Part shown: positions 3,352 to 59,392 of the stretch, in pieces
How positions within the stretch are numbered: the stretch's first letter is position 1
Layout of the letters: every line of letters begins with the position of its first letter
Source: Candidatus Moraniibacteriota bacterium
Lineage (GTDB): Bacteria; Patescibacteriota; Minisyncoccia; Moranbacterales; UBA2206
Reading direction: 5' to 3'
Assembly: GCA_013334765.1 (NCBI GenBank)
Contig: JAAXWW010000005.1
Coordinates: 28,350-92,349 of the forward strand
DNA length: 64,000 nucleotides
Notes under the pieces: model-generated
Databases searched by the model: none
Told to the model about the DNA's origin: nothing
The model's input: only the letters and a program-made list of their open reading frames with translations
Made by a program: the position numbers and the translations under genes

Positions 3352-3387
3352 CTTGCATTGATTATACCATTTGAGAATCGGATCCTG

Positions 3388-5764: not shown

Positions 5765-5933
5765 AATTTTTTCAGGACCTACGCTTTGGCATATGGCAAT
5801 CCGTCATGGGATTGGCACATGAAAATACGCAAGCCGCATATTCTAGGCTTAATATTTCTTATGAGATGTCAAGACATACTAGCACACATTCGTTTTATTT
5901 GTCAAGAGTATGTCGGTATGATATCCTTCGCCT

Positions 5934-7013: not shown

Positions 7014-7028
7014 CGCGCATCACTATTC

Positions 7029-9311: not shown

Positions 9312-9500
9312 CGAACAAAATAACAATAAAAATACCCTAGGACTTGCGCGTTTGCTGAAAAAACTTTTTTCTTAGCCAGAAACAGAAGGCAGTTTCCCAA
9401 GAGTCAAGGTGAGACTACATATAACCCGGACGGATTCCGCACAGCCTCGCGATTTAAAAGGTTTTTGAGGAAAATGCGCGAGTCCTGAAACAATAAAAAT

Positions 9501-10991: not shown

Positions 10992-11024
10992 CAATCCTTT
11001 TTTTAGAAATATCGGAAAAAATAT

Positions 11025-24840: not shown

Positions 24841-27423
24841 ATGGCAAAAAACGGAGCATCTAAGAAAATATCGCTTCTCGAACCGTCTTTTCGGGATATT
24901 TTGGTTTGCCGCAATAATGACAACAAGCCTTTTCTGGAAGCTTTCCATGCGGAACCGGAGAACGTATCGCTTGAAAAGCTAGGCACCCTTTTCGGATTCT
25001 TCGAAATAACCGACCATTCCGAAGATTCCTCATATATAGTCAACTACCTCATTTCCGTCATCAAGAAGGAATTCTTCCTGCGTCCCGGAAGAGGATCAGT
25101 CGAGAGCTTCGAGGCGGCGCTCCACAAAGTCAACCTCGCCCTTTCGAAACTGGCCGCCCATGAGAACGTGAAATGGATCGGGAACCTCAATTCGGTCTGC
25201 GCGGTCATCGAAAAGAACAACCTCCATATAGCCAGCGCCGGTTCCGGAAACGCCTTCTTCCTCCGATCAAAGACCCTCACGGAACTCACCGATCCATCAG
25301 AGAACTCCGGATCCGCCAATCCCTTGAGGACATTCCAGGACGTATTGTCCGGACGCATGGAAGAAGGCGACAAGATAATCCTGGCAACCCAGAGCATCTT
25401 TGACATCTTTTCCATTGAGGAAATCAAGAAAAGCGCGCTTAAATTTTCGCGCGAGGAATTCGCCCGATTCCTGAACACGGCGCTTGTCAACGAGCTTGAT
25501 TCGGCAACAGTCATTCTGGCCGATATGGACAAGAAAGGGGCCAATGCGTCGGTCGAAGCTCCCGAAAAAGAGGTTATTGAAGAGATGAACGCCTTTGCCC
25601 AGACAACCTATGCCAAGAAACGGGAGACGGAAGAGCCGCATAGAGAAGAGGCGCACATATCCCCCGAAGAGAAAAGCAGGCTGAAAGAAGAGATCCAGGA
25701 GTTGAAAGATGAATTCGTAGACAAAAGGACTGGCCATATATATATCAAGGAAACCGCTCCCGAAGAGGAACAGGAAGAAATACGTTTTCAGGGCAGCTAT
25801 TCGGAAATGCTTGGAAAGATTACGCAGACTGCCGGCACCAAACTGAAGAACCTGAGCGATTCTTCGAAGTCAGCCGCGTCAGGCATGCTGGATTCGAGCC
25901 GCCTACTGCTGGAGAAAGTCAGGAAGAACATATCCAAGAAAAAGGAGGGAAGGATTTCTTCCATCGAATACGCGACGGATGAAACGCCTACAAAAGAAAA
26001 CTATGCCCCGCAGGAAATGGCTGCCGCGGCATCTTTGGCGGCAATAGCCAAAAAAAGCGCCAGCGCTTTGACGCAAAAAGCGAGCAACGCCCTCCGTGAG
26101 GAAAATTTCGAACTTATCTGGAAATCCATCCGGAACGCCTGCGTCCGCTTGGCAGAAAACCTGAAGCCTGCCGCCATAGGAACAAGAAACGCTCTCATAA
26201 GGCTTGCTATTCTCATAGCTACCATCTCGAAAAACTTGGCGCGCATGATAGCGACCGAGGCTTATCCGGCAGCCAAAAGGGCTGTTATTTCGACTATTAG
26301 TAGATTCAAACATGCGCAGAAAAGCAAGCCAGAAACCGCAGTTATCGTCACCGAGAACATATCCGCCCAGTCGGCAAGCAAGGCATCTATTGAGAATTTT
26401 TCCAGAGCAAGAGCATCCCGAACGATAACCCCCCGATCGCTTCCGGCGCGAAGGAAGATGATCCCTGATTTCAAAAAGCTCAGGAATATCATAGGGAAGC
26501 TCAACTATCAGCAACGGCTGTATCTCATCCTTCTCGTGATGGCTTTCTTCATCGTCCCCTATTGGATCGTGAAATTGGAAAACCGTTCCGCCGAAAAGAA
26601 ACCAGCACCCGCTCCGGCAGCCATGACAGAAAGCGCATCATCCATGCTGCCGCTTCAGAATGACAAGAACGTCACCCGTATAGAAAAGATTTCCAAAACG
26701 TATTCCGGAGAAGACATTACCAACGTGATAAACCTGAACGGCAAATTCTTCTCGGTTTCCAAGACCGACATAGTAAGCCTTGAAACCGAAGCCAGATTCC
26801 CGATTCCTGACAATTTCCAAAATGCTGAATTCGCAGCTCCGATGGACGACTTGGGGATTATTTTCCTGATGAAAGGCGGGCGCGTTACGTCCTTCAGCCC
26901 TGCATCCGAGAAATTCAGCGATAACAGCCTGTCCCTTCCGGCAAGCGTCGAAGTGAGAGGGATAGGCAGCTATCTTACCTATCTTTATGTGCTTGACGCT
27001 AAGGCGGGGCAAATCTATCGCTACCCGAGGGCCGAGGGCGGCTTCGGGGACAAATCCGACTGGCTGAAAGATACTCCGAACCTCTCAGGAGCCCAGGATA
27101 TGGCCATCAATGATAACGTCTTCATTATTTCCAATGGCAGGATTATCAAGTTCTTCCGCGGAAAATCTCAGGACTTCTCACCCGAAAAAACCGCTACCGA
27201 GGTCATTCCGGAAAAACTGTATACCAATCCTGATTCCGAGAACATCTATGCTCTCGACACCAAGAACGCCAGAATCGTGAAATATGACAAGGACGGCAAT
27301 CTGGTTTCTGAGTTCTATAACGCTGCAATCGAAAACGCTGACAACTTCAGCGTCGACGAGAAGAACAGCGTCGTCTATTTCTCAACCGAAAACGCGGTGA
27401 ATTCGTTCGGGATGGAGGGATAG
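24841..27423 (+). CDS. Transmembrane PP2C-like (PPM) Ser/Thr phosphatase with a C-terminal extracytoplasmic repeat domain (860 aa)
   Basis: The N-terminal PPM motifs are LFGFFEITDH, NLHIASAGSGNAFFLRS, ILATQSIFDIFS and ATVILADM. A single TM (LYLILLVMAFFIVPYWIV) follows. The C-terminus has repeated units (LYVLDAKAGQIYRY, IYALDTKNARIVKYDKDGN). Confidence 0.7.
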   Translation: MAKNGASKKISLLEPSFRDILVCRNNDNKPFLEAFHAEPENVSLEKLGTLFGFFEITDHSEDSSYIVNYLISVIKKEFFLRPGRGSVESFEAALHKVNLALSKLAAHENVKWIGNLNSVCAVIEKNNLHIASAGSGNAFFLRSKTLTELTDPSENSGSANPLRTFQDVLSGRMEEGDKIILATQSIFDIFSIEEIKKSALKFSREEFARFLNTALVNELDSATVILADMDKKGANASVEAPEKEVIEEMNAFAQTTYAKKRETEEPHREEAHISPEEKSRLKEEIQELKDEFVDKRTGHIYIKETAPEEEQEEIRFQGSYSEMLGKITQTAGTKLKNLSDSSKSAASGMLDSSRLLLEKVRKNISKKKEGRISSIEYATDETPTKENYAPQEMAAAASLAAIAKKSASALTQKASNALREENFELIWKSIRNACVRLAENLKPAAIGTRNALIRLAILIATISKNLARMIATEAYPAAKRAVISTISRFKHAQKSKPETAVIVTENISAQSASKASIENFSRARASRTITPRSLPARRKMIPDFKKLRNIIGKLNYQQRLYLILLVMAFFIVPYWIVKLENRSAEKKPAPAPAAMTESASSMLPLQNDKNVTRIEKISKTYSGEDITNVINLNGKFFSVSKTDIVSLETEARFPIPDNFQNAEFAAPMDDLGIIFLMKGGRVTSFSPASEKFSDNSLSLPASVEVRGIGSYLTYLYVLDAKAGQIYRYPRAEGGFGDKSDWLKDTPNLSGAQDMAINDNVFIISNGRIIKFFRGKSQDFSPEKTATEVIPEKLYTNPDSENIYALDTKNARIVKYDKDGNLVSEFYNAAIENADNFSVDEKNSVVYFSTENAVNSFGMEG

Positions 27424-27426: not shown

Positions 27427-27473
27427 AAGCGGTTCAGACGCAAGCCGCAATGGCTTTCCTGTCTGAACCGCTT
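27427..27473. terminator. Hairpin immediately after the PP2C gene stop
   Basis: AAGCGGTTCAGAC and GTCTGAACCGCTT form a 13-bp stem with a 20-nt loop. No clean T-tract follows. Confidence 0.4.
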
Positions 27474-28042: not shown

Positions 28043-30511
28043 TTATATGACGCTCCGCATTCCGGCTCTGGTCATGATTTCGCGCTCAACGAGATCGCGG
28101 TCGCGGCCGTATTTGAAACGGGAAAGCTCCTTGAGCGCATTGGCGATTTCCTGATTGCCCTTGATCGGAGGGAAAGTCGCCATGTTGAAAGGCTTGGTGA
28201 GCGCGTTATCGATGAGGATTCTGGCAAAGCCGTTATAGTTGTCCACATTCACCAGGTCTTTGGCACTGAAGGTCGGAGCGAACTGCTTTTCCAGGAACTC
28301 AGCGTCCTCAGGGCCGACCCTGAAAGCCACCATCGATCCCACATTCCCGAACACCGCCTTGGAAATCTCCTCCTTGAGCTGAGCGATGAACTGATGCGCC
28401 AGCACCAGGCAGAGCCGGTATTTCCTGGCTTCGGAAAGAATCTGCGAGATGGAATTGGTCGTGACATTCTGGAATTCATCGAGATAGAGATAGAAATCCT
28501 TCCTCTCATCCTCCAGGATATCGGCGCGCGAAAGCGCTGCCATAAGGATCTTCCCGACAATCACCATCCCCAAGAGGCGCGCATTGATCTCGCCTATCTT
28601 CCCTTTGGAAAGAGCAACCAGAAGGATCTTCTTGCTGTCCATGATATCTCGGAAATCAAGCGTGCTCTTCTGCTGGGCGATGATCGGGCGCATCATATCG
28701 TTTGATATGAAAGGCGTGAGTTTCGAGGTGATATAAGGAACCATGTTGGCAAGCGAGGCTTCGCCGCCGGCCTTTTCCGCTTCCTTGGTCCAGAAATCGA
28801 CTACGATCGGATTCTTGCATTTCTTGAGTTTCATGGCGCGGAAAGATTCATCGGAAAGCACTTTTGGGATTTCCATAAGCGTCGATCCGGATTCGGGATC
28901 ATCCATGACAAGGAGCATGGCGTTCCGCATATACTGCTCGAACATCGGTCCTCCGGTCGCTTTCAAGTCATAGAGCTGGTCGAATATCCCGATCATCTCA
29001 TTGATAACGAAGGTCTTGAGTTCCGGCCTAGTTGTGTCATATTCAAGCATATTCAGCCCGAAGGGACGCTCCGTATCGGCCGGATTGAAAACAATTACAT
29101 CTTCGGCTCGCTCTTTCGGAATAGCAGTCAGGATATCTTCGATAGCATCCCCGTGCGGGTCAATGAAGCAGAAACCGCGACCGTCCCTGGCATCCTGCTT
29201 CGCCATTTCCTGCAGGAAATTGGATTTTCCGACTCCGGTCTGTCCGATTGCATACAGATGGCGCCTGCGGTCTTTCTCTGAAATCCTGATAGTAGTCTTC
29301 GTTCCGCGATAGTCGTTGTATCCAAGGGTTATTCCCTCAGTTGGAATATTTATCGGCGGAGGGGAAGCGTTGGATTTCAGCCATTTGATTTTCGGCGTTT
29401 CCGTGGTCGAAATGGGAATATGGTATATGCTGGCAATTTCCTCATTGCTGAGCGTTATGGATTCATCCGATTTGAAATTGCGGAAAATGAAATCATAAGC
29501 GATTTCCTTCTTATCCATCCTTTTGACTTGGAAGTAGTTTATGTCGGAATTCTGGTATTGCGAAAAAGCGTTTTCGAGATGGCCTAGGATTTCCTGGGCA
29601 CGTTCCTGGGTCTTGGCCGAAGCGACCAGGCGGATATTGACACGGAATCCGCTTTTGACGCTCTTCCTCTCGATGCTCTTCACCAGTTCCTGTTCTTCCG
29701 GCGTAAGCTGGACGACCGTCTTCTCAAAAGATTGCTGATCTTTACCTTCGTGCGCGATAACCCCGGAGATGGCGCTGCCCACTTCGCGACCGACTTTCAG
29801 CATGAAGTGTCCCGTGACATCCTTGAGCCGTTTGCCTTGCTGCATTTCGTGCGCGATGCGCTTCCCTTCGCTTCTCCAGCCTGTTCCGGCGGGAGCAAGA
29901 ACCAGCTGGATAGCTGCCCCTTCTTCGACAGTGTCCAGCTTGCTTATGGCGTTAGTAATAGCGTTCAATGGGTCTATTTCCAGATCCTCATAGGTTTTTA
30001 TCGGCAAGGCATGGCTTTCCTTGAGGATTATGATCGACGCCTCAGTGAAGCTTCCAGGAGAAAAAACGCTATAGTCGCCGCATTTCTCCAAGACTGCGTT
30101 CGGGAAATAGCTGTGGATCTGCTTTTCAACGCTCTCGCGGAATTTCTTGGGAATGGAAATAAAGAATATTATCTCTTCGGAATCGGACGAATTGGCTATT
30201 TCGAAAGAAATGCTCGGAGAACCATATATCAGCTTCTTAAAGAATCCCTTCTTGTCCTTCATCGAAGAAAGCGCCGTAAGAAGCTGTTCCATGGCGCCTA
30301 TTTCGTCTTTCCAAGTCTGCTTCTCCCTACTGCTGTCTTCGGGCCTTATTTCCATCTTGGAGACACGGATAATATCCAGATCGAGATTCATCGACTGGTT
30401 TATTTGAGAGCGGAAAGAAACGAATCCATTGATGATAGTCAGGGCGCCCAGAATAAGCGTTGCCAGTCCGGAAACGACAAGAATCGGAATCAGGATAATA
30501 TTGATGTCCAT
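28043..30511 (-). CDS. Fused N-terminal membrane domain plus FtsK/HerA-VirB4-like (DUF87-type) ATPase (822 aa)
   Basis: An N-terminal TM is followed by a domain homologous to the 3388-4662 product. The ATPase has Walker A AIGQTGVGKS, FIDPHGDA and Walker B FYLYLDEFQNV. Confidence 0.8.
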   Translation of the reverse strand: MDINIILIPILVVSGLATLILGALTIINGFVSFRSQINQSMNLDLDIIRVSKMEIRPEDSSREKQTWKDEIGAMEQLLTALSSMKDKKGFFKKLIYGSPSISFEIANSSDSEEIIFFISIPKKFRESVEKQIHSYFPNAVLEKCGDYSVFSPGSFTEASIIILKESHALPIKTYEDLEIDPLNAITNAISKLDTVEEGAAIQLVLAPAGTGWRSEGKRIAHEMQQGKRLKDVTGHFMLKVGREVGSAISGVIAHEGKDQQSFEKTVVQLTPEEQELVKSIERKSVKSGFRVNIRLVASAKTQERAQEILGHLENAFSQYQNSDINYFQVKRMDKKEIAYDFIFRNFKSDESITLSNEEIASIYHIPISTTETPKIKWLKSNASPPPINIPTEGITLGYNDYRGTKTTIRISEKDRRRHLYAIGQTGVGKSNFLQEMAKQDARDGRGFCFIDPHGDAIEDILTAIPKERAEDVIVFNPADTERPFGLNMLEYDTTRPELKTFVINEMIGIFDQLYDLKATGGPMFEQYMRNAMLLVMDDPESGSTLMEIPKVLSDESFRAMKLKKCKNPIVVDFWTKEAEKAGGEASLANMVPYITSKLTPFISNDMMRPIIAQQKSTLDFRDIMDSKKILLVALSKGKIGEINARLLGMVIVGKILMAALSRADILEDERKDFYLYLDEFQNVTTNSISQILSEARKYRLCLVLAHQFIAQLKEEISKAVFGNVGSMVAFRVGPEDAEFLEKQFAPTFSAKDLVNVDNYNGFARILIDNALTKPFNMATFPPIKGNQEIANALKELSRFKYGRDRDLVEREIMTRAGMRSVI

Positions 30512-30543
30512 TTATGTTATTGTTTTTCTTTTTTATTTTTCTC

Positions 30544-31014
30544 CTATATCTCGGTTATGAGCCCTTTCCTGACTAGCGCGTCATGCAGATCCGCAGAAAG
30601 AAGCCTGTCATGAAGCTCGTCGAGAAGATAGTTGTCTTCCATATGGCGCGCCACCTTCACGGCATGGACGACGCCTTTCGATTCGGCGATGCTAACCAGC
30701 TTTTCCAGCCTGCTCTCGTAGTCTTTCATTTCACTCATCTCTTTAGCATCAGAAGACACATTGCTGGTAGATGAGGCTTGCGGAGCGTCGGAAGGAACCT
30801 TGGAAAGGATCTTGGAATATGCCGCTTCCTTTTCCGCAGCGCCTTCCTTTCTTTCCGCGTTCGTTTCGGGAAGAGACGGCGTTTCAGCATCCAAAACAGC
30901 CTCGCTGGGAAAATCGATATTTTCTTTCTTGGCGGCTGCTCCTGGCAGGAATTTGTCTTTCAAATCCAAATCGCTTTCATCGATCGGTTCCAGATTAGAT
31001 TTTATCGGTTCCAT
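30544..31014 (-). CDS. Hypothetical acidic protein (156 aa)
   Basis: It is in the operon directly upstream of the fused ATPase. It is E/D/S-rich with a helical C-terminus. Confidence 0.5.
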   Translation of the reverse strand: MEPIKSNLEPIDESDLDLKDKFLPGAAAKKENIDFPSEAVLDAETPSLPETNAERKEGAAEKEAAYSKILSKVPSDAPQASSTSNVSSDAKEMSEMKDYESRLEKLVSIAESKGVVHAVKVARHMEDNYLLDELHDRLLSADLHDALVRKGLITEI

Positions 31015-31036
31015 ATTTTTCAGTTAATTATTGAGT

Positions 31037-31348
31037 TTATGCTTTTTTCATTTCCGTCTTGAATTCGTCGATGATGCTTCTCACCATTCCGTCATAATCG
31101 GCGATCTTTTCCCTGAGAAATATCTCTATTTTATCGGGACCCTCTTCGGCATCGATCATTTTCATGTATTCCTCTTTGTCCCCCTCCGAAAGTTTCGCAA
31201 GAGACTCCGAGAATATCCTGCGAAGGACGACTTCGGTCATCTTTATGAGAAGCTCGTCCTGCTTGTCCTTGGAAAGCTCGGAAAGACCGAGCTCTTCTAT
31301 GAGAGCGTTGCGCGCTTCGTCCTGATTAGGTTGTCCATTATTTCCCAT
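31037..31348 (-). CDS. Hypothetical small helical acidic protein (103 aa)
   Basis: In-operon ORF with 22-nt spacing from its neighbours and charged helical composition. Confidence 0.5.
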   Translation of the reverse strand: MGNNGQPNQDEARNALIEELGLSELSKDKQDELLIKMTEVVLRRIFSESLAKLSEGDKEEYMKMIDAEEGPDKIEIFLREKIADYDGMVRSIIDEFKTEMKKA

Positions 31349-31369
31349 GTCGTTTTAAGATTAGTATAT

Positions 31370-34009
31370 TTATTGTAATTGTATTCCTTTGCTTTTCATT
31401 ATCATGCCTATCACTCTGGTTGTCCAACTACTCAGCCTCTCCCCGTCCTTAGGTTCGAATACTTTCCCTCCTGGAGCCGCTAACAATGACCTGTATACCC
31501 CGATAACCTTCTCCCCACTGCCGTTCGACACTGGGTCATCGAAAAGCTCCTTGGCTGTTATGTTCTGCATCTGCTGGAACGAACCTATGCGGGTATTGTC
31601 TCCCAACATGCTGATACGGTATCTGGAGAACATCTTCTTGATAAGCTGGTTGTGATACTCTTTAAGCCTCAGCATTACCGCTTTGGCTCTTATGTTTTCT
31701 TCCATGCTCATTTTGGCATCTGTCAGCCTATCAAGCTCGGCAGAATCTCCATGCAAAGCATGCTCTGAAACGATTTTCTGATCTATTTCGCCTAATTGGA
31801 TTCTCATCGCATTGATATCGGTTTTTTCTATGCCAGGATTATGAGATAATATATTGTTTATTTTCCCTGATACTTCATGGTATCTATAAATGTCACGACC
31901 GACAGATCCGGATAACCCGAACTGACCGTCAATACGGTTCACGTCTTCCACATCCATTCCCATGATTTTTCCATGAACTTCGCCTGTTTCAATATAATGG
32001 TTTCCAACCCCGGCATTATTAGGAGCACCGTCATGAATGCCAGCTGCAGCCTTTTCATCAGGAGTGGCAAAAGAAAAATAAGGCTTTCCATCCGCTCCCT
32101 TTTCGATCCAGCCCAAATGCTTGTCACCGGTTATTCCCATTATCCCTTTGCCATCCGGAGTAAGATGTATTTTTGTTCCTTCATGCACTAGACTGAAAGC
32201 TCCTTTCGGTAAATCATGCTTTTGGGCAAATTCGACAGCCATTCTGTGCGCCCTTCTTCCAGCTTCTTCTTTGCTAACACCTTGGGATGTAAGATGCTTA
32301 ATCAGGTTTCTTTCAATGCTTCCTCCTTTCCCGATCGTTATTTCAGCCCCTTTTGGAATTTCAGCAGTCGAAGCAATCCCGGGACCGGATTCCGGAACTT
32401 TCGGTATGCCGGAATGAATCGGCGAATCGCTCTGCAAATCCGGCGCCTGATACGAACCGTCCGGAAGACGCGCTCCGTGTCCATGATTCCGTATATCGTA
32501 TTCTTTCAGCTTGCTATATATTTCCTTAGCTCCTGGTCCTGGTTTCACTCCTGGCGTTTCGGTGCCATGAACGCCTCCCTGGATTTCAGGCTTCATAGCA
32601 CCATCATGCGAAGGATGCAACTTCGGCATTCCGGCCTTGACTGCATGATCCGCATTCAATCCTAAACCGTTCACGACTTGAAATATTGCTGAGGCTCCGA
32701 TAGCTCCGCCAACAATCCACCCGATCGCCTTCCTGCTTCCTGATTTCCGCACTTCGCGCTTGAGGCTTTCGTCATATGTCTTGATTTCATTCCTCAATGA
32801 TCCAGCAAGGACATTGAATTTTCCTTCCAGATCATTGACATCCATTTTAGCCAGCTCTTCAAGCATTTTATTCTTCTCTTTCTCGGCTTTTTTCGCGTCT
32901 GACAAGCGCCTCATATTCTTCTGGGTCTCCGCTATTCCGACTCCAGCCGCCGCGCCGCCGATTATTTTCTGACCGAATCTGGCCACTCCCGCAACAGTAG
33001 CGACTGAAGCAACCCCGGCAAATCCTGCGCCCAATCCGATTGCGAAAATACCAGCAGAAGCAGCGACCTTCTGTTCCCGAGGGAGCTTCTTGTACCACTC
33101 CACAACTTGCACTCCCCTTTCCCAAACCTTATCTTTCCAGCTCTTGTCCTTGCCGTCTTCATCGGCCTTGAGGTCGGATTTAGCCCTAGTACGGGCATCG
33201 AAGAGATTGTTATTCTCTTCCAATTTGAAATACATGATCAGCTTGCCGATTTCATCCTCCGCCTCTGTGCCCGTAGCAATCTTTCCAGCTTGGCTTTTCG
33301 ATTCGATGCCGTCATACTTCGATCTTAATGATTCCACTTGGAAGCTTATAAGCGCATTAAGCGCGGCTTGATATTGGTTGTATTCATCAGTCGTGCCGGC
33401 TAAGGTTTCGGATGTGGTTTTGACATAGCGCAGCACTCTGTTCATCATCGACAGCTTTCTGCTCATTTCCAAATCTTTCGCAGCATATGCCGCTCTGGTC
33501 GATTCGACATTCTGCCTGAGCATCTCTAGTTCTTCTGCTCTTTTTTCCGCTTCGCTTTTTTCACCTACCGCTTCACTGTCAACCGGCTTATCTTTATTAT
33601 TGTCCTCCATATTCTTTCCGGTGAACTCTCCATCGTCAGATATCCCTGAAAATTTCCTGAGCCATTCCTCCTTGCTCATTGATTCTCTCGGTTTTTCATC
33701 ACTATTATCAGCCACCGGTCCGCGCGAAAAATCTTCCAGCCACTGCCTTTTCATTTCCTCTTGATTATCTGGATATGAATCTTCCGGTTTTTCTTCTTGA
33801 GGCTCCTGCTTATTATCCTCGGGCAATTCATTTTTTTTCAATTCCAGACTTCCCGGTTTTGCCGGTTCGCCATCGATGGCAGAGTTCTCTGTCGCATTCC
33901 TGCTCTTCATCTCATTCAATCTGAGATTCCTTTTTCGAGCCATTTCATTCTCTTTTGCGAGTATTGATTTTGTTGCTGCCTCTGGATCAAACATTATTTT
34001 TATTTTCAA
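31370..34009 (-). CDS. Large hypothetical membrane protein (879 aa) with two Gly-rich TM segments
   Basis: The N-terminal third is acidic and coiled-coil. The TM-like segments are AASAGIFAIGLGAGFAGVASVATVAGVA and AIGWIVGGAIGASAIFQVVNGLGL. It has a Gly/His-rich C-terminal domain and I recognise no family. Confidence 0.6.
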   Translation of the reverse strand: MKIKIMFDPEAATKSILAKENEMARKRNLRLNEMKSRNATENSAIDGEPAKPGSLELKKNELPEDNKQEPQEEKPEDSYPDNQEEMKRQWLEDFSRGPVADNSDEKPRESMSKEEWLRKFSGISDDGEFTGKNMEDNNKDKPVDSEAVGEKSEAEKRAEELEMLRQNVESTRAAYAAKDLEMSRKLSMMNRVLRYVKTTSETLAGTTDEYNQYQAALNALISFQVESLRSKYDGIESKSQAGKIATGTEAEDEIGKLIMYFKLEENNNLFDARTRAKSDLKADEDGKDKSWKDKVWERGVQVVEWYKKLPREQKVAASAGIFAIGLGAGFAGVASVATVAGVARFGQKIIGGAAAGVGIAETQKNMRRLSDAKKAEKEKNKMLEELAKMDVNDLEGKFNVLAGSLRNEIKTYDESLKREVRKSGSRKAIGWIVGGAIGASAIFQVVNGLGLNADHAVKAGMPKLHPSHDGAMKPEIQGGVHGTETPGVKPGPGAKEIYSKLKEYDIRNHGHGARLPDGSYQAPDLQSDSPIHSGIPKVPESGPGIASTAEIPKGAEITIGKGGSIERNLIKHLTSQGVSKEEAGRRAHRMAVEFAQKHDLPKGAFSLVHEGTKIHLTPDGKGIMGITGDKHLGWIEKGADGKPYFSFATPDEKAAAGIHDGAPNNAGVGNHYIETGEVHGKIMGMDVEDVNRIDGQFGLSGSVGRDIYRYHEVSGKINNILSHNPGIEKTDINAMRIQLGEIDQKIVSEHALHGDSAELDRLTDAKMSMEENIRAKAVMLRLKEYHNQLIKKMFSRYRISMLGDNTRIGSFQQMQNITAKELFDDPVSNGSGEKVIGVYRSLLAAPGGKVFEPKDGERLSSWTTRVIGMIMKSKGIQLQ

Positions 34010-34035
34010 CTATTTGGATATTCAAATTGGCATTT

Positions 34036-36018
34036 TCAAAAAAACAAGAAATCGAGGTCATTAGACTTGATTAGCCTTTTAATTGCCAACTCGACTCTTT
34101 CCTCGCTATTGAAATGCCCTTCTTTGACCATCTCTGCTTTTAATCTTCGAAAATATGCCCTGATGTTGATATCCGCCAAATCACCAGCATCGTCAGGATC
34201 ATAGCCGAACCCGGACCAGTCCATACCTCTTATATGTCCGATCATCTCTTTCACGCCTTCTTCATATATATCGCATATTTCGATTTCTTTTTGCGTCAGC
34301 ATTTCCTTGAACAAATCAGCATTCCACTCTTGCAATTGCTTGAATGAAATTATCTTCGGAATTGATTTTATTTCGTCTCCGGATCGATTCTCCACTACAA
34401 CCATTCCTGATTCTGTATTCACTGCAGCAATCCGCCATCCTTCTTCTCCAGCGACCTTCACATCGATTGTTCCTCCGTTCTCAATATACGTCCTGATTTC
34501 TTTCAAATATTCCTCTTCGCTTGATCCTTCAAATGAACCATTTTTAAACACGCTATCAATCAATGCAGAGGCATCGCTTTCTATGGTTTCCTTTCCGCGT
34601 GTTCCGTCATTGCCCAGGTTTTTTTGATCTGGTTCGGCGGCAGCGACTTCATCTTCATGGGTTCTTTCATTTTTAACTGATGGTTGATTTTTTTCTGGAA
34701 TCGCGACAGGTTCAGGCATGGATTTCTCAGCTCGTTCTTTTGCTTCTTTTTCCAGGGCCGCCTTGAGTTCAGGATTGATTTCTCCTCCCGACAAAGTCTT
34801 CATGAATTCTTCCATTGTCACGTCAAGCGGCTCGCTGTCATTCGTGTCTCTTAGCAGATAGTTACCGCGAACATTGATCATTCCGCGAGGAACGATCCCG
34901 TCGTCTATTTTTCTTTTATGATATGAGTAGAATTTGAATTGATCTTCCCCCGGGCTCCAAATCAGATATCCGTCATAGCCTCTGTATCTAGCCGCTAATT
35001 GTCCGACATTTTCCGCGCGATTAACCTTAGGATACCCATTCTCCTTTTTTGTATCGATAAGCACTTTATGATCGCCGCCTACATCCAGAACAAATCCTTT
35101 TTTCTCTAATTCTTCAATTTCTGCCTTGGCTTCTTTCTTAGCCTTCTCCAGCTCTTCGCTGCATTCTGAAAGGGTTTTTCTTCTAGCCTTCCCATTACCG
35201 ATTGAACAATTGTTATTGTTCAAATAGTACTCATCAAGAGGATCGGCCGGATTTCGGCGAGGCCGTCTCCGGAACAGCGCCAAAATTTCGCTGGTATCTA
35301 TTTTATTGCGCAATCCGTACAGATTCTTGTGATAGTTATCAAAAACTTTTTTCAGCTCCCTATCAGAATAATTTTCATTATCACACTTGGTCACAAATTC
35401 CACAAACCGATCCAAGTATTCCTCTTTTTTCAAAATGCCTTCCCTGACTAACTCTTCGTAGAAATACTTTGCGGCTGAGGTGTCCTTGTCTGAATCCTTC
35501 CCGTGATGGTCATCTATGTATATTTTCCCAGCTTCTCTGGTAGCCGTTCCATCTACACCGCCGGAATCAAAGATGGCTCCGCTTTTGACTGTATCCCCCG
35601 GGAAAACATAACCCAGTTTTATTTCCTGGTCTTTCAAATCTATTCCGGCTATTCTGAGTATTTCCAGACAGCTTCTACCATCAAGATCCGTAAATTTTAG
35701 CAATGACTTTTCACCTGTTTCAGGATCAATTCTTACGATTCCATGAACGGATATTTCTTTCCATAAATGCGTGAATAATTCCTTGAGTCTTTCTTGCTTT
35801 TCCTCTTCCGTGCCACCAAGCTCTTCCTCGGAATCTAGTTCCACTCCGAAATCGTTCGCTAATTTATTAAGCAAATAAAAAGTATGTTGGACCAAGGGAC
35901 GATTAGCAGCCTCTTCTTTTGCAAACTCATATCCTTTCAATCCAACTTCTTGCTTCGGCTCTTTTTTTTGCGCTTCGCCTGCGCTTACGCTGCCAGAGCT
36001 ACTTACTGTCTCTTTCAT
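34036..36018 (-). CDS. Hypothetical 660-aa protein with DHH-phosphoesterase-like motifs; first gene of the operon
   Basis: KFTDLDGRSCLEIL resembles DHH motif I (DxDG). GKIYIDDHHGKD resembles motif III (DHH). VLDVGGDHKV is a possible GGGH-like motif. The C-terminal half is unassigned. Confidence 0.55.
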   Translation of the reverse strand: MKETVSSSGSVSAGEAQKKEPKQEVGLKGYEFAKEEAANRPLVQHTFYLLNKLANDFGVELDSEEELGGTEEEKQERLKELFTHLWKEISVHGIVRIDPETGEKSLLKFTDLDGRSCLEILRIAGIDLKDQEIKLGYVFPGDTVKSGAIFDSGGVDGTATREAGKIYIDDHHGKDSDKDTSAAKYFYEELVREGILKKEEYLDRFVEFVTKCDNENYSDRELKKVFDNYHKNLYGLRNKIDTSEILALFRRRPRRNPADPLDEYYLNNNNCSIGNGKARRKTLSECSEELEKAKKEAKAEIEELEKKGFVLDVGGDHKVLIDTKKENGYPKVNRAENVGQLAARYRGYDGYLIWSPGEDQFKFYSYHKRKIDDGIVPRGMINVRGNYLLRDTNDSEPLDVTMEEFMKTLSGGEINPELKAALEKEAKERAEKSMPEPVAIPEKNQPSVKNERTHEDEVAAAEPDQKNLGNDGTRGKETIESDASALIDSVFKNGSFEGSSEEEYLKEIRTYIENGGTIDVKVAGEEGWRIAAVNTESGMVVVENRSGDEIKSIPKIISFKQLQEWNADLFKEMLTQKEIEICDIYEEGVKEMIGHIRGMDWSGFGYDPDDAGDLADINIRAYFRRLKAEMVKEGHFNSEERVELAIKRLIKSNDLDFLFF

Positions 36019-36194
36019 GTCTTATTAAAAAATAAAGCAATGAGATTAGTACTCACTTTTCTTTATCTGAATTATACAACAAAACAACAAAACCTCCCAC
36101 CTGTAAATGCGAGCGTCGGCTGTGGATAAGTGAAAATGTGATATAATCGAATCAGCAACCGAGTTGCTGGCTAATTTTTTCTCAAAACAAAAAA

Positions 36195-37772
36195 ATGGAA
36201 GAGGCACAGGAAGAAAAAAGAATGGGCTACAAGGTTTGGATTATTTTGATAGCCATACTGGCAATCGGTTTCTTCTTGAGGATATACAACATCGATCATG
36301 CGCCTCCGGGAGTATATCCCGATGAAGCGGTCAACGGCATGGATGCCGTTCAGGCCGAAGAATCCGGAAATTATCAGTGGTTCTATACCGCCAATAACGG
36401 ACGCGAGGGGCTTTTCATGAATATGATCGCAATGAGCTTCAAATTCTTCGGCATAAGCCCGCTGTCGCTCAGGATCCCATCCATAGTCTTCGGAACCCTC
36501 ACCATACTCGGGACCTATCTTGTCGCCAAAGAACTTTTCCAGAAGGAACGGGTCGGCCTTCTGGCCGGATACCTGGTCGCCGTGTCATACTGGTCGATCA
36601 ATTTCTCACGCATATCCTTCCGGGCTATCCTGGTTCCTTTCATCCTGTCTTTTTCTTTCTATTTCCTGTTCAGAGCAGTCCGTACGAAGAAATGGTATGA
36701 CTTCGCGGCAGGCGGCTTGATTTTCGGCATCGGGTTGCATACGTATATCGCCTTCCGCATCGCGCCGCTCATCCTGGTCGTCGCGCTCATGAGCTTCATG
36801 CTTTCCAGAAAGGATTTCCTGAAAGAATATTGGAAAGGGATATTGATATTCATAACCGGAACGATCATAACGGTCGCTCCGATACTATATACCTTCTATA
36901 TCCACCCTGAATATCTCAGTTCTAGAACCGCTTCGGTTTCCATCCTTTCACCGGATGTCAACCAAGGGCATCTCTTTGCGACGTTCTTCCGGAGTTTCGG
37001 GTTGAGCCTTGCCAAATACAACTTCTGGGGCGACCAGAACTGGAGGCATAACTATCCTCCCTATCCCGTTTTGGATATCGCTTCAGGAATCGCGTTCCTT
37101 TTCGGAATCGCCTATTCTTTCATCAGGCTTTTCCATCTGCTTTGGAATAGGATAGTCGATGGATACAGGAATTCCAGGCTGGACAAGCATGTGTTTCTCA
37201 TTTCCTGGTTCTTCATCATGCTGGTTCCGGAGTTCATGACAGCCGAGGGGCTTCCGCACGCCTTGCGTTCGATCGGAACGCTGCCGGCAGTCTTCATCCT
37301 CGCCGCCATGACCTTCGACTATTTCTTCAGATATGCCGAACGGCACACTCCCTTTTTCAGGAAGCTCAATGCCGCAATGGTCATCATCGTTCTCCTTAGC
37401 ATCGGGATATTCAACAGCATAAAATATCACCTCTTTTGGGCGCACAAGACCGAGGCTGCTAGCTCCTTCGAGCGTCCATTGATGGATATCTCGGAATATC
37501 TCCATACCCTTCCCCTGCAGCAAGAGAAGATCGTTTTCGCCGAGTCCATGCAAAGGATTCCTATCCAGGTTTTCGATTGGAAAATGCCTAACACCGAATA
37601 TCTCTATTCCGGGCAGATCAATGAATTTTCGCCGACGTCCGATAATTTCATAGTCATCCTTACCGACAAGAATGATGCGATCATCAGCCATATCCAAGAC
37701 AAATTCCCGGAACTCGCGCTCAAGGAAAGAAAGGACGCCTACGGCCTTAGCTTCTATACCCTAAGCAAATAA
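36195..37772 (+). CDS. GT-C fold glycosyltransferase, ArnT/PMT (GT39/GT83)-like
   Basis: It has 10 or more TM helices and a first-loop motif APPGVYPDEAVNGM of the DE type. Confidence 0.8.
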   Translation: MEEAQEEKRMGYKVWIILIAILAIGFFLRIYNIDHAPPGVYPDEAVNGMDAVQAEESGNYQWFYTANNGREGLFMNMIAMSFKFFGISPLSLRIPSIVFGTLTILGTYLVAKELFQKERVGLLAGYLVAVSYWSINFSRISFRAILVPFILSFSFYFLFRAVRTKKWYDFAAGGLIFGIGLHTYIAFRIAPLILVVALMSFMLSRKDFLKEYWKGILIFITGTIITVAPILYTFYIHPEYLSSRTASVSILSPDVNQGHLFATFFRSFGLSLAKYNFWGDQNWRHNYPPYPVLDIASGIAFLFGIAYSFIRLFHLLWNRIVDGYRNSRLDKHVFLISWFFIMLVPEFMTAEGLPHALRSIGTLPAVFILAAMTFDYFFRYAERHTPFFRKLNAAMVIIVLLSIGIFNSIKYHLFWAHKTEAASSFERPLMDISEYLHTLPLQQEKIVFAESMQRIPIQVFDWKMPNTEYLYSGQINEFSPTSDNFIVILTDKNDAIISHIQDKFPELALKERKDAYGLSFYTLSK

Positions 37773-37792
37773 AAAAGTAACATAAAAAAAAT

Positions 37793-39640
37793 ATGCGTCG
37801 CTTTTTGGAAAACAATCACAGAGCAATCATCACGCTGGTGATGCTGTTCATGTTCGCCGTTTCTACGCTCAATGCCTGGAGGGACAGCGCCATCTTCGAC
37901 GAAACCGCTCACATTCCAGCCGGGTATTCATATCTCACCATGCATGACATCCGCCTCAACCCGGAGCATCCGCCGCTTCTCAAAGACCTGGCAGCCCTTC
38001 CCCTTCTTTTCCTCCATCTCAAATTCGACACGACCCAGAAGTTCTGGACGACTGATGTCAACGGGCAGTGGGAAGCCGGGAAAAGCCTTTTCTGGCAATC
38101 AGGCAACAACCCTGATCTTCTCATTTTCCTGGCACGCATGCCCATTGTCATCCTGTCCCTCGTTTTCGGATTATTCCTGTTCAAATGGGTCAAGGAACTA
38201 GCTGGAACACTCGCCGGACTTTTCGCATTGATTCTCTATGCCTTCGATCCCAATATCCTAGGGCATAATCATTTCGTGACGACAGATCTCGGAATCGCCG
38301 GATTCATGATGATCTCTTTCTATTATTTCCTGCGTTTCATCAAAAAACCGACTTGGAAAAACGTCGCCATCGGCGGGCTGTTCCTGGGAATAGTCCAGCT
38401 CACCAAATTCTCTTCCATAATGCTTTTCCCGATCTATGGGCTGATCCTCATCATCTATCCCATGTTCAGGATCGCAAGGCAAGACAATGAGAACACGTTC
38501 GGGTTCAGGATGAAAACCATCGGGGAATATCTCATAAAAGGAATCGCCGCCTTCGCCATATCCCTGGTAGTCGTTTGGGGATTGTATGTCTTCAATACCT
38601 ATGACATGCCGAAAGAAAAACTTGCCGAAACCATCAACTATTATTTCAGCCCGACCGATACCAACCCGACCAACCTATATACCAACCGGGCACTTATCGG
38701 ACTCAACCAATCATCGATCACCCGTCCGCTCTCCGGATATGTTTTGGGCATCGCCATGGTCTTCAAGCGCGTCGAGGGAGGAAACGGGGCATATTTCATG
38801 GGCCAGGTTTCGAATAGCGCTTTTAGAAACTATTTCCCGACCGTTTTTGCCATAAAGGAACCGATTCAGAACCTGTTCCTGTTCGCATCCGCCATAGCGA
38901 TCGCTCTCATAGGCATCTTCGCGGCTATCGTCCGCCATCTCAAGAAACCTTTCGGAAGCATGTTCCCTGCCGGAGAATTCGGCGCTTTTGTCAGGCACAA
39001 CATCACATCCATTTCGCTTTTGGGATTTGTCGCCCTTTATGCCTATATAAGCATCACGGGAAATCTCAATATCGGATTCCGCCATCTCTTCCCGATCCTG
39101 CCTTTCGCCTATATCCTCACTGCCAAAACTATTTTCGATTTCATTAAGAAACGGGAAACCCACAATGAGAAAGTCATTTTCCGCTCGATCGTCCTTCTGC
39201 TTTCTTTGACTCTCGTAGTCCAGACCGCCCTGGCCTATCCCTACTACATGTCATATTTCAACCAGATAGCTGGCGGGCCGAAGAACGGCTATCACTATGT
39301 CACCGATTCCAATGCCGACTGGGGACAGGACCTGAAGCGCCTCAGATCCTTCCTGGCGGTTCATCCTGAGATAATGAAGATCCGCGTCGACTATTTCGGC
39401 GGGGCGGATATCAAATACTATATCGGGGACAGATATGCGATGTGGTGGGATTCCAAGCGTCCCATCGAATCAGGCTGGTATGCCGTTTCCACCAATTTCC
39501 TGCAGGGCAGCCTCTACGACAAAACCAAACCGGACAATCAATCATATCGCTGGATCCAGAAGTTCACCCCGAAATACCAAGTAGGCACTTCGATTCTGGT
39601 TTATTACATAAGCCCGGATGACTTGAAACAGTTGAAATAG
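37793..39640 (+). CDS. Second GT-C fold glycosyltransferase, ArnT/PMT-like, with a C-terminal soluble domain
   Basis: FDETAHIPAGYSY...NPEHPPLLK resembles the ArnT-family DE...EKPPL loop. It is polytopic and tandem with the previous gene. Confidence 0.75.
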   Translation: MRRFLENNHRAIITLVMLFMFAVSTLNAWRDSAIFDETAHIPAGYSYLTMHDIRLNPEHPPLLKDLAALPLLFLHLKFDTTQKFWTTDVNGQWEAGKSLFWQSGNNPDLLIFLARMPIVILSLVFGLFLFKWVKELAGTLAGLFALILYAFDPNILGHNHFVTTDLGIAGFMMISFYYFLRFIKKPTWKNVAIGGLFLGIVQLTKFSSIMLFPIYGLILIIYPMFRIARQDNENTFGFRMKTIGEYLIKGIAAFAISLVVVWGLYVFNTYDMPKEKLAETINYYFSPTDTNPTNLYTNRALIGLNQSSITRPLSGYVLGIAMVFKRVEGGNGAYFMGQVSNSAFRNYFPTVFAIKEPIQNLFLFASAIAIALIGIFAAIVRHLKKPFGSMFPAGEFGAFVRHNITSISLLGFVALYAYISITGNLNIGFRHLFPILPFAYILTAKTIFDFIKKRETHNEKVIFRSIVLLLSLTLVVQTALAYPYYMSYFNQIAGGPKNGYHYVTDSNADWGQDLKRLRSFLAVHPEIMKIRVDYFGGADIKYYIGDRYAMWWDSKRPIESGWYAVSTNFLQGSLYDKTKPDNQSYRWIQKFTPKYQVGTSILVYYISPDDLKQLK

Positions 39641-55878: not shown

Positions 55879-55998
55879 GTTCCCAGCATTGTCCTACTCT
55901 TCCCCCGCCTGAGCGGGGATACCATCGGTGCTGATAAGCTTAACGGCCGAGTTCGGTATGGGATCGGGTGTTTCCTTATCGCTAGAAACACTGGGAAC
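55879..55998 (-). rRNA. rrf: 5S ribosomal RNA
   Basis: The reverse complement reads TTCCCAGTG...CCCGATCCCATACCGAACTCGGCCGTTAAGC...CACCGATGGTATCCCCG...GGGGAAGAGTAGGACAATGCTGGGAA with helix I pairing. The ends are approximate. Confidence 0.85.
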
Positions 55999-56239
55999 GA
56001 TACATTCAAAAAGTGCTTAGAATGCCTTGATCACAGGAGAGAAAAACATGAATGATGCAATGGCAATCAGGATAACAAAAAACACGGCTGATATGAACTT
56101 CAAATTATCAGTATACCTTTTCATAAGTGACTTTTTTAGTAACTGTTAACTGCTAACCGAATCATACCATATATCATGAAACACCGCACATGAGACTTGC
56201 GCCTCATATAAAGTGCTCCACGTTATATGGAAAATAAGA

Positions 56240-59392
<3,153 letters not shown>

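Follow-up and report, generated by a model that had tools for sequence, protein, structure and literature searches.

What kind of system do five closely spaced genes form when the last of them encodes a putative membrane-anchored ATPase? The genes lie on the minus strand of a 64,000-nucleotide stretch of DNA (the window) from an ultra-small Moranbacteria (Patescibacteria) genome, a group that we take to be a member of the class Paceibacteria. The original prediction was that they form an undescribed secretion or DNA-transfer module.

Layout of the locus

The five co-directional, tightly spaced ORFs proposed at the outset were verified by an ORF check, with their coordinates and lengths. In transcription order, the spacers between them measure 26 nt (41 nt with the ATG start of the 879-aa ORF), 21, 22 and 32 nt. 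The features used below are as follows.

34036-36018, minus: 660-aa DHH-superfamily-like protein, a sporadic accessory in a variable slot
31370-34009, minus: 879-aa membrane protein (alternative ATG start at 33994 or 33943)
32666-33571, minus: conserved core of the 879-aa protein, about 300 aa (aa 147-448), with a helical region and two Gly-rich hydrophobic segments
32993-33049 and 32672-32728, minus: the two Gly-rich hydrophobic segments (aa 321-339 and aa 428-446), from hydropathy
31412-31441, minus: C-terminal motif ERLSSWTTRV of the 879-aa protein, pattern E-[TS]-h-x-x-[WYF]-x-x-[RK]-h
31037-31348, minus: 103-aa acidic helical DUF5663 protein (PF18908, 25.7 bits against a cut-off of 23.7)
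30544-31014, minus: 156-aa protein with the motif LEPIxxxDLxLKxKF, an acidic variable linker and a helical C-domain of about 65 aa
28043-30511, minus: 822-aa protein made up of a TM helix, a DUF8128 N-domain and a T4CP-type P-loop motor
30431-30499, minus: N-terminal TM helix (aa 5-27), hydropathy 2.6 over 19 residues
29342-30394, minus: DUF8128 N-domain (about aa 40-390), VirB4 N-terminal-domain-like fold
29222-29245, minus: Walker A, GQTGVGKS (aa 423-430), from an alignment of homologues
28469-28492, minus: Walker B region, YLYLDEFQ (aa 674-681), from an alignment of homologues
27494-27922/27979, minus: ORF of 142-161 aa between the ATPase gene and the stem-loop
27429-27471, minus: stem-loop with a perfect 11-bp stem followed by a minus-strand T-run, read directly from the sequence
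1423-3351, minus: soluble T4CP-like paralogue of 642 aa with a C-terminal treble-clef zinc finger, 25 kb from the locus

The 879-aa ORF starts with TTG; public gene calls use ATG and give 874 or 857 aa. Operon membership of the 142-161-aa ORF is doubtful: it had no tblastn match in any of 82 related loci and no family match. The stem-loop beyond it is likely a terminator; the consensus scan passed it over, its loop of about 21 nt being longer than the scan allows. Upstream of the operon, the hairpin CAGCAAC-CGAG-TTGCTG was found where expected, at 36153-36169. The proposed promoter element TGTGATATAAT is present at 36137-36147, but its place on the plus strand orients it towards the divergent PMT gene and not the five-gene operon. 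Promoter- and terminator-like sites occurred at chance frequency in the consensus scan, and the transcription signals are therefore unproven. Family searches found no VirB4, VirB6, relaxase or pilin gene within the 64-kb window, so the link to a T4SS is one of homology only.

The coupling ATPase and its relatives

By sequence, the 822-aa protein is classed as a type IV coupling protein (T4CP) of the VirD4/TrwB/TraG type. It matched PF10412 with 38 bits (cut-off 20.5) and PF12696 with 28.6 bits (cut-off 22); PF02534 was also above its cut-off and DUF87 was below its own. A profile search of the PDB matched only DotL and TrwB, and no sequence match to VirB4 families or TrwK was obtained in Pfam, further family and PDB profile searches. 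The ATPase had been described as VirB4/HerA/DUF87-like; a T4SS-type ATPase of the FtsK/HerA superfamily it is, but by sequence Pfam favours VirD4/TrwB/TraG. Its supposed fused membrane domain turned out to be a single N-terminal TM anchor, hydrophobic in all homologues aligned. An acidic residue before this helix and basic residues after it suggest an N-out, C-in orientation. Precomputed annotation places PF26449 (DUF8128) on homologues of the protein, and the fold of the N-domain matches TrwK/VirB4; only this domain is VirB4-like, and by fold only. Residues G423, Q424, T425, G426, G428 and K429 were invariant among 20 homologues, as were D678, E679, F680 and Q681 in those aligned. The protein is a single-pass membrane-anchored ATPase, probably N-out with a cytoplasmic DUF8128 domain, and has a VirD4/TrwB-type motor with Walker A and B intact. 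The soluble paralogue is 45% identical to this motor domain (E 1e-120) and carries Pfam matches to PF10412, DUF87, PF12696 and zf_Tbcl_2.

Like canonical T4CPs (TrwB of R388, VirD4, TraD, DotL), the 822-aa ATPase has an FtsK/HerA motor, an N-terminal anchor and matches to TrwB_AAD_bind and TraG-D_C. Unlike them, it has one TM helix rather than two, an additional VirB4-NTD-like domain of about 350 aa and a locus without relaxosome genes, and it widely missed the canonical T4CP equivalog models (e.g. TraD, 34 bits against a cut-off of 366). It also differs from VirB4/TrwK, both in sequence and in having no VirB3, VirB6 or VirB8 neighbours, and is not similar to the VirB4-like proteins that adjoin its own homologues.

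On actinobacterial plasmids, full-length relatives are the coupling protein of conjugative clusters; such relatives were also found on plasmids of archaea and Bacillus and in Bacillus phage G (gp156), the plasmid sources including Streptomyces, Bacillus/Priestia, haloarchaea and Sulfolobus. A plasmid T4CP of Embleya sp. NBC_00896 (WP_331738717.1) is 28% identical over aa 68-781 of the ATPase (E 2e-80; N-domain alone, E 6e-12), and the two have the Pfam architecture of DUF8128-type T4CPs in common. In its conjugative cluster, the Embleya protein is flanked by a VirB4-like ATPase and a PrgI/VirB3-like protein on one side and by a relaxase-like protein and an NlpC/P60 hydrolase on the other, and gp156 of phage G adjoins the VirB-like ATPase gp155. 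The Moranbacteria locus, in contrast, is chromosomal and vertically inherited, with none of those neighbours and with lineage-specific partners. Its ATPase belongs to the T4CP subfamily of actinobacterial conjugative elements and archaeal plasmids.

A survey by Quinonero-Coronel et al. (2025, PMC12102498) counts 5,713 VirD4-like homologues in 2,918 patescibacterial genomes, about two per genome, with 148 of them near virB4; it gives the function of these T4CP homologues as unknown and considers exaptation. It also places T4SS genes near dnaA in Paceibacteria, where a separate VirB4 system is general, and reports that in Southlakia, the only genetically tested patescibacterium, the T4SS is essential and a distant T4CP homologue is not. 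Wang et al. (PMC10633639) describe a T4SS cluster without a recognisable coupling protein. The two paralogues in our window match the survey's figure of about two per genome, and the 822-aa ATPase is almost certainly one of its orphan T4CP homologues; the locus is the chromosomal site of such a Patescibacteria-type orphan T4CP. The operon of this T4CP, its 156-aa, DUF5663 and hypervariable partners and its VirB4-like N-domain are not described in the available part of the survey, and a search of the available literature for DUF8128 and DUF5663 found no mention of either. The claim of an undescribed system can be kept for the partner set, which is not known to have been described, but not for the ATPase family, already reported in Patescibacteria in 2025.

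Partner genes across Moranbacteria

We compared 82 Moranbacteria loci from about 80 species. The 156-aa gene lay directly upstream of the ATPase gene in 80 of them, and the same held for 19 of 21 metagenome loci from further afield, with ATPases 42-60% identical to that of the window. The DUF5663 gene was found in 63 of the 82. Iterated profile searches recovered the 879-aa family in 65, in every case immediately upstream of DUF5663; some of the loci in which the family was not detected (about 20%) are truncated. The 660-aa gene occurred in 5-6 and is missing from the closest relative. The gene set is kept outside this genome, as had been proposed, but as four genes with the DHH-like gene sporadic. 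Its core arrangement was found again in about 100 independent loci, a recurrence much beyond chance. The ATPase is tied in a putative operon with the 156-aa protein, a partner nearly always there, and DUF5663 and a large, extremely fast-evolving protein with two hydrophobic segments are usual members.

The locus and its flanks are syntenic in about 80 species, and the divergence of the ATPase, which is 61-76% identical across them, parallels that of its neighbours. The ATPase is vertically inherited in Moranbacteria and relatives, and few proteins encoded nearby are as conserved. The PMT genes and an 860-aa gene are syntenic as well, and such high synteny across the clade makes adjacency alone weaker evidence than it appears.

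The 879-aa protein is only 38% identical to its counterpart in the closest relative, against 95.5% for the ATPase and 76-92% for the neighbours. The two Gly-rich segments claimed for it were confirmed. They fall within the core of about 300 aa, the one long segment kept across the family, which sits at a variable offset in proteins of 527-1581 aa. Pfam matched none of 45 members. The C-terminal motif pattern is position-specific: it was found within the last 70 aa in 32 of 61 members, and only 2 times elsewhere in the same proteins (54,435 residues).

The 103-aa and 156-aa proteins are acidic as predicted (pI 4.6 and 4.7, respectively), with no TM helix. In the 156-aa family, which forms 369 clusters at 50% identity, the N-terminal short motif is repeated in some homologues and the C-terminal helical domain is conserved; the 156-aa protein has no relatives in Pfam or PDB. 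Apart from DUF5663, the partners matched no Pfam, NCBIfam, PHROG or PADLOC family. The expected lack of canonical T4SS components also held, with no VirB3, VirB6, VirB8 or pilin match among the partners.

The 660-aa protein was rightly linked to DHH proteins: it has a DHH-like fold, and motifs I-IV (DxDG, D, DHH, D) are invariant, as in the DHH/DHHA1 phosphoesterases NrnA, PggH, RecJ and Cdc45. Unlike these, it is too divergent for Pfam/PDB HMMs, shows no GGGH (DHHA1) motif and has long additional N- and C-terminal regions. The variable slot upstream of the operon is filled by many unrelated orphan proteins across loci. Two fusions argue for functional coupling among the partners, one joining DUF5663 to the C-terminus of an 879-aa family protein (locus L068) and the other joining a DHH-like domain to the core of such a protein (locus L081).

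Candidate roles of the module

Tentatively, we prefer to read the locus as a coupling-ATPase module specific to this lineage, in which the small partners resemble adaptors and the hypervariable protein is a membrane partner or cargo. The ATPase would form a membrane-associated hexamer and use ATP to recruit and to unfold or translocate a macromolecular substrate. DotL works with the small acidic adaptors IcmS and IcmW, and by analogy with these, or with VirE1, the two small acidic cytoplasmic proteins could be dedicated adaptors or chaperones, the 156-aa protein perhaps acting as a tether by its motif-linker-C-domain layout. The hypervariable protein would be a membrane partner or cargo and its C-terminal motif a docking signal, while the DHH-like protein and other slot occupants may be interchangeable accessory or cargo proteins. 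Delivery would most likely proceed via the VirB4-centred T4SS that PMC12102498 places near dnaA in the class Paceibacteria. The locus is a putative secretion/DNA-transfer module. Its two-segment topology and the fusion to cytoplasmic DUF5663 suggest that the big protein has its two ends in the cytoplasm; unless this protein is exported, such rapid evolution is then harder to account for.

Somewhat unlikely, yet of real weight, is that the ATPase, perhaps together with the soluble zinc-finger paralogue, is an exapted housekeeping translocase that no longer serves a T4SS. It might then act in chromosome/DNA translocation at division, in DNA uptake or in export and assembly of envelope components, with the small acidic proteins as regulators and the big protein as a membrane scaffold. 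Exaptation is left open in PMC12102498, and the context is core chromosome, with an FtsQ-type POTRA protein, MreB, a MurA-like protein, Pol III delta', rRNA and polyprenyl and PMT glycosyltransferase genes. The PMT genes are divergently adjacent even in distant loci, the paralogue is located in a dprA-topA neighbourhood, and no protein encoded near the ATPase is as conserved as the ATPase itself. With conservation this extreme and housekeeping genes around it, the ATPase suits a core cellular function no less well than it suits effector delivery. A hypervariable partner and a variable accessory slot are, however, atypical for a housekeeping machine, and all characterised full-length relatives found here have conjugative or T4SS-like contexts. 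It is less probable still that the ATPase and the big protein form a T4SS-independent channel of their own, moving protein or DNA across a single membrane. The four-gene unit does include a membrane partner with no detectable homology to VirB6, VirB8 or VirB3, there is no other T4SS gene nearby, and a VirB4-like N-domain on a T4CP-like motor could in principle do both jobs. Two hydrophobic segments per protein are nonetheless a poor basis for a channel, and the big protein varies far too much to be a structural core and goes undetected in about a fifth of the loci, though some of these are truncated. Paceibacteria, where we place Moranbacteria, generally encode a separate VirB4 system (PMC12102498).

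It appears very improbable that an integrated conjugative or mobile element or a prophage left this locus as a remnant or carries it as cargo. Plasmid and Bacillus phage relatives, a full-length PHROG match (phrog_5156), the low GC of the 660-aa gene (0.42) and a tyrosine recombinase and two Bro-N proteins 4-16 kb away point in that direction. The conserved flanks and the ATPase diverging in step with its neighbours point the other way; the unit has no relaxase, VirB4, replication or integration gene, GC of the ATPase region equals that of the genome, and an exchangeable look is limited to the accessory slot. That a HerA/FtsK-like ATPase serves here as the basis of an anti-phage defence system seems hardly credible. 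The neighbouring genes are variable and there are weak PADLOC matches (mad8, E 5e-11; HerA models, E 5e-4 or weaker), but these cover generic P-loop regions only, and the sole defence match among the partners is a weak one of DUF5663 to PDC-M36B (E 3e-4). Defence islands behave in the opposite way to this locus, which is nearly universal, fixed in position and very highly conserved.

Layout and conservation of the operon

We located five consecutive ORFs on the minus strand exactly where the original prediction had placed a secretion- or DNA-transfer-like operon.

ORFs of the operon, in transcription order
34036-36018, minus strand: 660-aa DHH-like protein
31370-34009, minus strand: 879-aa protein (big protein), TTG start
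31037-31348, minus strand: 103-aa protein
30544-31014, minus strand: 156-aa protein
28043-30511, minus strand: 822-aa ATPase

The spacers measure 21-41 nt and the five genes are presumably co-transcribed. The 660-aa and 879-aa products are identical to HGB08_03975 and HGB08_03970 of a Candidatus Moranbacteria MAG, and public gene calls start the latter ORF at ATG codons, giving 874 or 857 aa. No obvious Shine-Dalgarno sequence was found at any of the five starts, and the regions upstream of them are rich in A/T. Computed isoelectric points and hydrophobic segments agreed with the physical descriptions given earlier, the 103-aa and 156-aa proteins being acidic (pI 4.6 and 4.7). A divergent promoter region had also been proposed. 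Both of its elements are present, but TGTGATATAAT (36137-36147), an extended -10-like sequence, does not serve the operon: because it is on the + strand, 48 nt ahead of the divergent PMT gene, it is the -10-like element of that gene. The hairpin (36153-36169) falls in the same leader (36137-36190) and is followed by a T-run and the ATG; together these resemble an attenuator or terminator within the 5' leader of this first PMT gene. A perfect TATAAT can be read on the minus strand at 36076-36071, and a promoter/terminator consensus scan gave matches at chance frequency only. At the other end, an 11-bp perfect stem (27429-27471) precedes a T-run on the minus strand, and between the stem and the ATPase gene lies a 142-161-aa ORF that is not conserved in related loci.

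Genes flanking the operon
two PMT_2 glycosyltransferases, divergent from the operon
polyprenyl synthase, tRNA-Glu
FtsQ-type POTRA protein, Pol III delta'
MreB, MurA-like protein
HisRS, RelA/SpoT, TopA, DprA
23S and 5S rRNA

Judged by these neighbours, the operon can be placed in the core chromosome, with no obvious mobile element. A scan of species-representative genomes yielded 80 Moranbacteria loci with an ATPase 61-76% identical to that of the window; counts out of 82 comprise these loci and two copies of one further contig.

Partner genes in the 82 loci (tblastn with the window protein; iterated profile search of upstream ORFs)
156-aa gene, adjoining the ATPase gene: 80/82; 80/82
DUF5663 (103-aa) gene: 62/82; 63/82
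879-aa gene: 33/82 (22-31% identity); 65/82
660-aa gene: 6/82; 5/82

The order was constant: an optional gene for 400-900 aa, a big gene for 750-1500 aa, genes for about 100 and about 145 aa, and the ATPase gene. Conservation of the set outside this genome was thus found for the ATPase, the 156-aa protein, DUF5663 and the big protein, but not for the 660-aa gene, present in only 5-6 loci. To escape clade-wide synteny, we used a divergent 6-sequence subgroup of the 156-aa family to collect 21 metagenome loci. The ATPase gene (product 42-60% identical to the window's) lay directly downstream of the 156-aa gene in 19; of the remaining two loci, one contig stops short of that point and the other may be an exception. 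On this count, the 156-aa protein and the ATPase can be called a near-obligate pair. Rates of divergence differ widely. Compared with the closest relative, identity was 95.5% for the ATPase, 87-92% for the PMT proteins, 83% for DUF5663, 81% for the FtsQ-type protein, 78% for the 156-aa protein and 38% for the big protein, which diverges far faster than all surrounding genes.

The 156-aa family forms 369 clusters at 50% identity, all of about 140-150 aa. Its members begin with a short motif, LEPIxxxDLxLKxKF (doubled in some longer ones), followed by an acidic variable linker and a conserved C-terminal domain of ~65 aa (KGVxHAVKVARHLxDxYxLDxxHDxL); no relative was found in Pfam (39 homologues scanned) or in the PDB (family-profile HMM search). 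The 103-aa protein matched DUF5663, a family of conserved acidic helical proteins of ~100 aa, over the full-length profile (PF18908; 25.7 bits against a gathering score of 23.7), and the same match is precomputed on the source contig. DUF5663 was all that emerged when the 660-, 879- and 156-aa proteins, 45 big-protein homologues, 39 members of the 156-aa family and 10 accessory-slot proteins were compared with Pfam, NCBIfam, PHROGs and PADLOC. No partner matched the VirB3, VirB6 or VirB8 families (45 big-protein members scanned), and hhalign found no relationship among the partner families. Two fusions in related loci, of the big protein with DUF5663 (L068, 4839-7358) and of a DHH-like domain with the big-protein core (L081, 1475-4843), tie the upstream genes together, and such sequences show domain shuffling at this locus among related genomes.

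A word-indexed search with the 879-aa protein returned only itself, and its family was recovered by jackhmmer on the fetched loci. The single long conserved part is a ~300-aa core with a helical region and two Gly-rich hydrophobic segments (aa 321-339 and 428-446 here), which occurs at varying offsets in proteins of 527-1581 aa. A C-terminal motif, E-[TS]-h-x-x-[WYF]-x-x-[RK]-h, lies within the last 70 aa of 32/61 members; it is position-specific, with two matches in the 54,435 other residues of those proteins. Three proteins of 1,344-1,446 aa (L078, L080 and L082, about 5130-9480), missed by the family profile, keep this motif, and their genomes have no separate DUF5663 gene. By eye only, aa 560-630 of the big protein were considered LysM-like; this reading is unsupported and contradicts the topology that the fusion with DUF5663 implies.

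The call of a DHH-like 660-aa protein was upheld, as a very divergent member of that group. Six homologues (26-35% identical) all share D39/G40, D77, D96-H97-H98 and D139, and the motif residues (DxDG, D, DHH, D) are likewise invariant in a second family alignment, though the Pfam DHH/DHHA1 models gave no match even at E <= 10 and PDB HMM searches with the protein and its family profile returned nothing. The family alignment has no GGGH motif. Within the locus, GC is lowest in the segment that holds this gene, and the gene is absent from the closest relative. It fills an accessory slot, a variable position upstream of the big-protein gene, occupied elsewhere by many mutually unrelated proteins that lack a Pfam family. 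A tail common to all accessory-slot proteins was considered and rejected: tails link several subgroups, with no shared signal.

Family and relatives of the ATPase

By Pfam, the ATPase is assigned to the families of type IV coupling proteins (T4CPs; VirD4/TrwB/TraG/TraD). It matched TrwB_AAD_bind (PF10412) with 38.2 bits against a cut-off of 20.5, TraG-D_C (PF12696) with 28.6 against 22 and T4SS-DNA_transf (PF02534) with 20.7 against 20.1, whereas DUF87/HerA, at 21.9 bits, stayed below its cut-off of 23.2. With this sub-threshold score and no NurA-like gene neighbouring the ATPase gene, we rejected a HerA helicase. NCBIfam gave weak sub-threshold matches only (TraD, VirD4-like and Ced ATPases); its equivalog models (TraD, CD1115 and others) were far under cut-off, so the protein is in none of those specific subfamilies. 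When the PDB was searched with a profile of 20 homologues, DotL and TrwB were the only matches; VirB4 was absent from them, and TrwK, present in the PDB, was not found at E <= 1. All 20 homologues keep the Walker A (GQTGVGKS) and Walker B (DEFQ) motifs unchanged. The ~250 residues between them are predicted to be helical, with a partial PF10412 match, and AF2 is unreliable there (pLDDT ~30). The structure model, built on a shallow alignment whose members share 71-95% identity with the query, has a mean pLDDT of 49.5 and an unusable motor; no claim on an all-alpha domain or a hexamer rests on it. The protein is anchored by one strong N-terminal TM helix (aa 5-27), while canonical T4CPs have two. 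No relaxase, VirB4 or other mating-pair-formation gene is linked to it in the 64-kb window.

N-terminally, the homologues carry a newer Pfam domain, PF26449 (DUF8128). A VirB4-type N-terminal domain fold was found in the ATPase, and we infer from the model that DUF8128 resembles the N-terminal domain of VirB4; since only the N-domain was modelled with confidence, this applies to the DUF8128 fold. With such a fold the ATPase is, in today's terms, a chimera of a VirB4-like N-domain and a VirD4-like motor. It gave no Pfam or NCBIfam match to the VirB4/TraC/CagE families and no similarity (E > 0.5) to the VirB4-like proteins of Embleya and phage G. The earlier label "VirB4/HerA-like" therefore named the right superfamily and suits the N-domain fold, but gave the wrong family for the motor, which is T4CP-type by Pfam.

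We used tblastn to search plasmids with the ATPase and obtained 291 records. Streptomyces/Embleya, Bacillus/Priestia and haloarchaea gave matches that extend over most of the ATPase and take in the N-domain, and Sulfolobus plasmids were also among the 291. The homologue of Embleya sp. NBC_00896 matched over aa 68-781 with 28% identity (E 2e-80); it is annotated as a T4CP and belongs to a conjugative cluster of the monoderm type, so that an orthologue was found inside a bona fide conjugative system.

Gene order of the Embleya cluster
753-aa protein
PrgI (VirB3-like)
XF1762
643-aa VirB4-like ATPase
T4CP
replication-relaxation protein
NlpC/P60 hydrolase

A second homologue is gp156 of Bacillus phage G (E 2e-34), encoded directly after the "VirB-like" gp155, in line with a full-length match of the ATPase to phrog_5156. 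By these two contexts, the family is that of coupling proteins serving monoderm conjugation-type systems, and archaeal plasmids carry further relatives. The phage G pair, VirB-like gp155 and the DUF8128-type T4CP homologue gp156, lies at 89194-93336 of its record, and shorter relatives occur in several SP-10-like and PBC1-like Bacillus phages.

The window encodes a second T4CP-like protein of 642 aa (1423-3351, minus strand), 45% identical over the motor domain of the ATPase (E 1e-120). It lacks the TM helix and the N-domain and ends in a treble-clef zinc finger; this soluble paralogue may work jointly with the membrane-anchored ATPase. It is preceded by a 424-aa ORF with no family match (1423-4662 for the two, minus strand), and a Sigma70_r4/HARE-HTH protein, dprA and topA are encoded nearby. 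Moranbacteria we take to belong to the class Paceibacteria. A published survey (PMC12102498) counts 5,713 VirD4-like homologues across 2,918 Patescibacteria genomes; just 148 of the homologues are close to virB4. It places the virB4 clusters of Paceibacteria near dnaA. Two T4CP-like genes here agree with the per-genome count in that survey (PMC12102498). In Southlakia the T4SS is essential and its cluster has no recognisable coupling protein (PMC10633639, PMC12857230).

Possible roles of the locus

These data establish a vertically inherited, highly conserved, membrane-anchored ATPase of the T4CP family whose conserved operon also encodes lineage-specific partners, one of them hypervariable. 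The operon described by the original prediction is thereby confirmed, and its interpretation is supported in part only. We tentatively favour, at somewhat under even odds, a coupling-protein module in which the ATPase, adaptors and a hypervariable partner or cargo serve export via VirB4. The ATPase would act as a hexamer that recruits substrate, and the small acidic proteins could be adaptors or chaperones, by analogy with IcmS/IcmW, which serve DotL, and with VirE1. The hypervariable protein would be a membrane partner or a cargo recognised by its C-terminal motif, and export would probably run through a VirB4 system encoded elsewhere.

The main rival, exaptation of the ATPase to a housekeeping translocase, we consider rather unlikely; the extreme conservation of the ATPase and its core-chromosome context speak for it, as does the non-essential T4CP homologue of Southlakia, for which the authors of the survey consider exaptation (PMC12102498). 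The original prediction had proposed a self-contained new machine, which we judge improbable, as the only membrane partner is too variable and has weak channel potential. Spelled out, with the same low probability, a stand-alone Patescibacteria-specific machine free of a VirB4 T4SS would use the ATPase and two acidic adaptors at the interface of symbiont and host, to export or insert rapidly diversifying two-segment membrane proteins together with interchangeable accessories such as the DHH-like enzyme; if so, Paceibacteria would have in the hypervariable proteins their first identified cargo or determinants of host interaction. Conservation and synteny speak against both a mobile element and an anti-phage defence system, and we regard these readings as unlikely.

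Patescibacteria account for a large part of bacterial diversity, and their T4SS is, to our knowledge, the only one shown to be essential for the growth of its owner, and we know of no coupling protein tied to it. The ATPase family and its "orphan" status in the phylum are already published (PMC12102498). In the papers searched we found no account of the ATPase's own operon, the 156-aa family, the DUF5663 link, the hypervariable partner or the VirB4-like fold of DUF8128, and a literature search by DUF names gave no match. A widespread orphan coupling-protein homologue thus gains a defined, conserved gene context: a near-obligate 156-aa partner, DUF5663 and a fast-diverging membrane protein whose identity falls to 38% where its neighbours keep 76-95%. 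Should the partners be cargo and adaptors, they would provide the phylum with its first candidates for secretion substrates and recruitment factors; should the ATPase be a housekeeping protein, this would be an equally useful correction to the annotation of such genes. The combination of a VirB4-like N-domain with a VirD4-like motor is also relevant to the divergence of the two T4SS ATPases.

Other features of the window

The two tandem PMT_2 glycosyltransferase genes (GT-C, ArnT/PMT-like; 36195-39640, + strand) lie next to the operon even in two distant loci (L087 and L106) whose ATPase is only 46-57% identical, an adjacency that hints at a possible tie to the envelope or glycosylation. Convergent with the operon is a gene for an 860-aa protein with no Pfam family (24841-27423, + strand), syntenic in 58/82 related loci and most conserved in its N-terminal ~320 aa; the protein has a TM segment (aa 560-578) and a weak match (aa 798-834) to the ScyF PEP-CTERM protein model NF035926. 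Bro-N domain proteins are encoded at 39697-40542 and 45679-46509 and a tyrosine recombinase at 43597-44412, and GC falls to 0.41-0.44 across roughly 44-50 kb. This region could be a small integrated element or XerC/D amid lineage-specific genes; the first Bro-N gene is kept in the closest relative. A 540-aa ORF with no family match (9372-10994, minus strand) overlaps the RelA/SpoT gene (9501-10991, + strand) in antisense; it is almost certainly a shadow ORF.

The 23S rRNA match (55881-59382, minus strand) covers 3,146 nt against a model of 2,925 nt, so the gene probably holds one or more insertions; no intron family reached its gathering threshold in this region. The 5S rRNA adjoins the 23S, but the 4.6 kb upstream hold no 16S rRNA; the rRNA genes thus seem to be unlinked.
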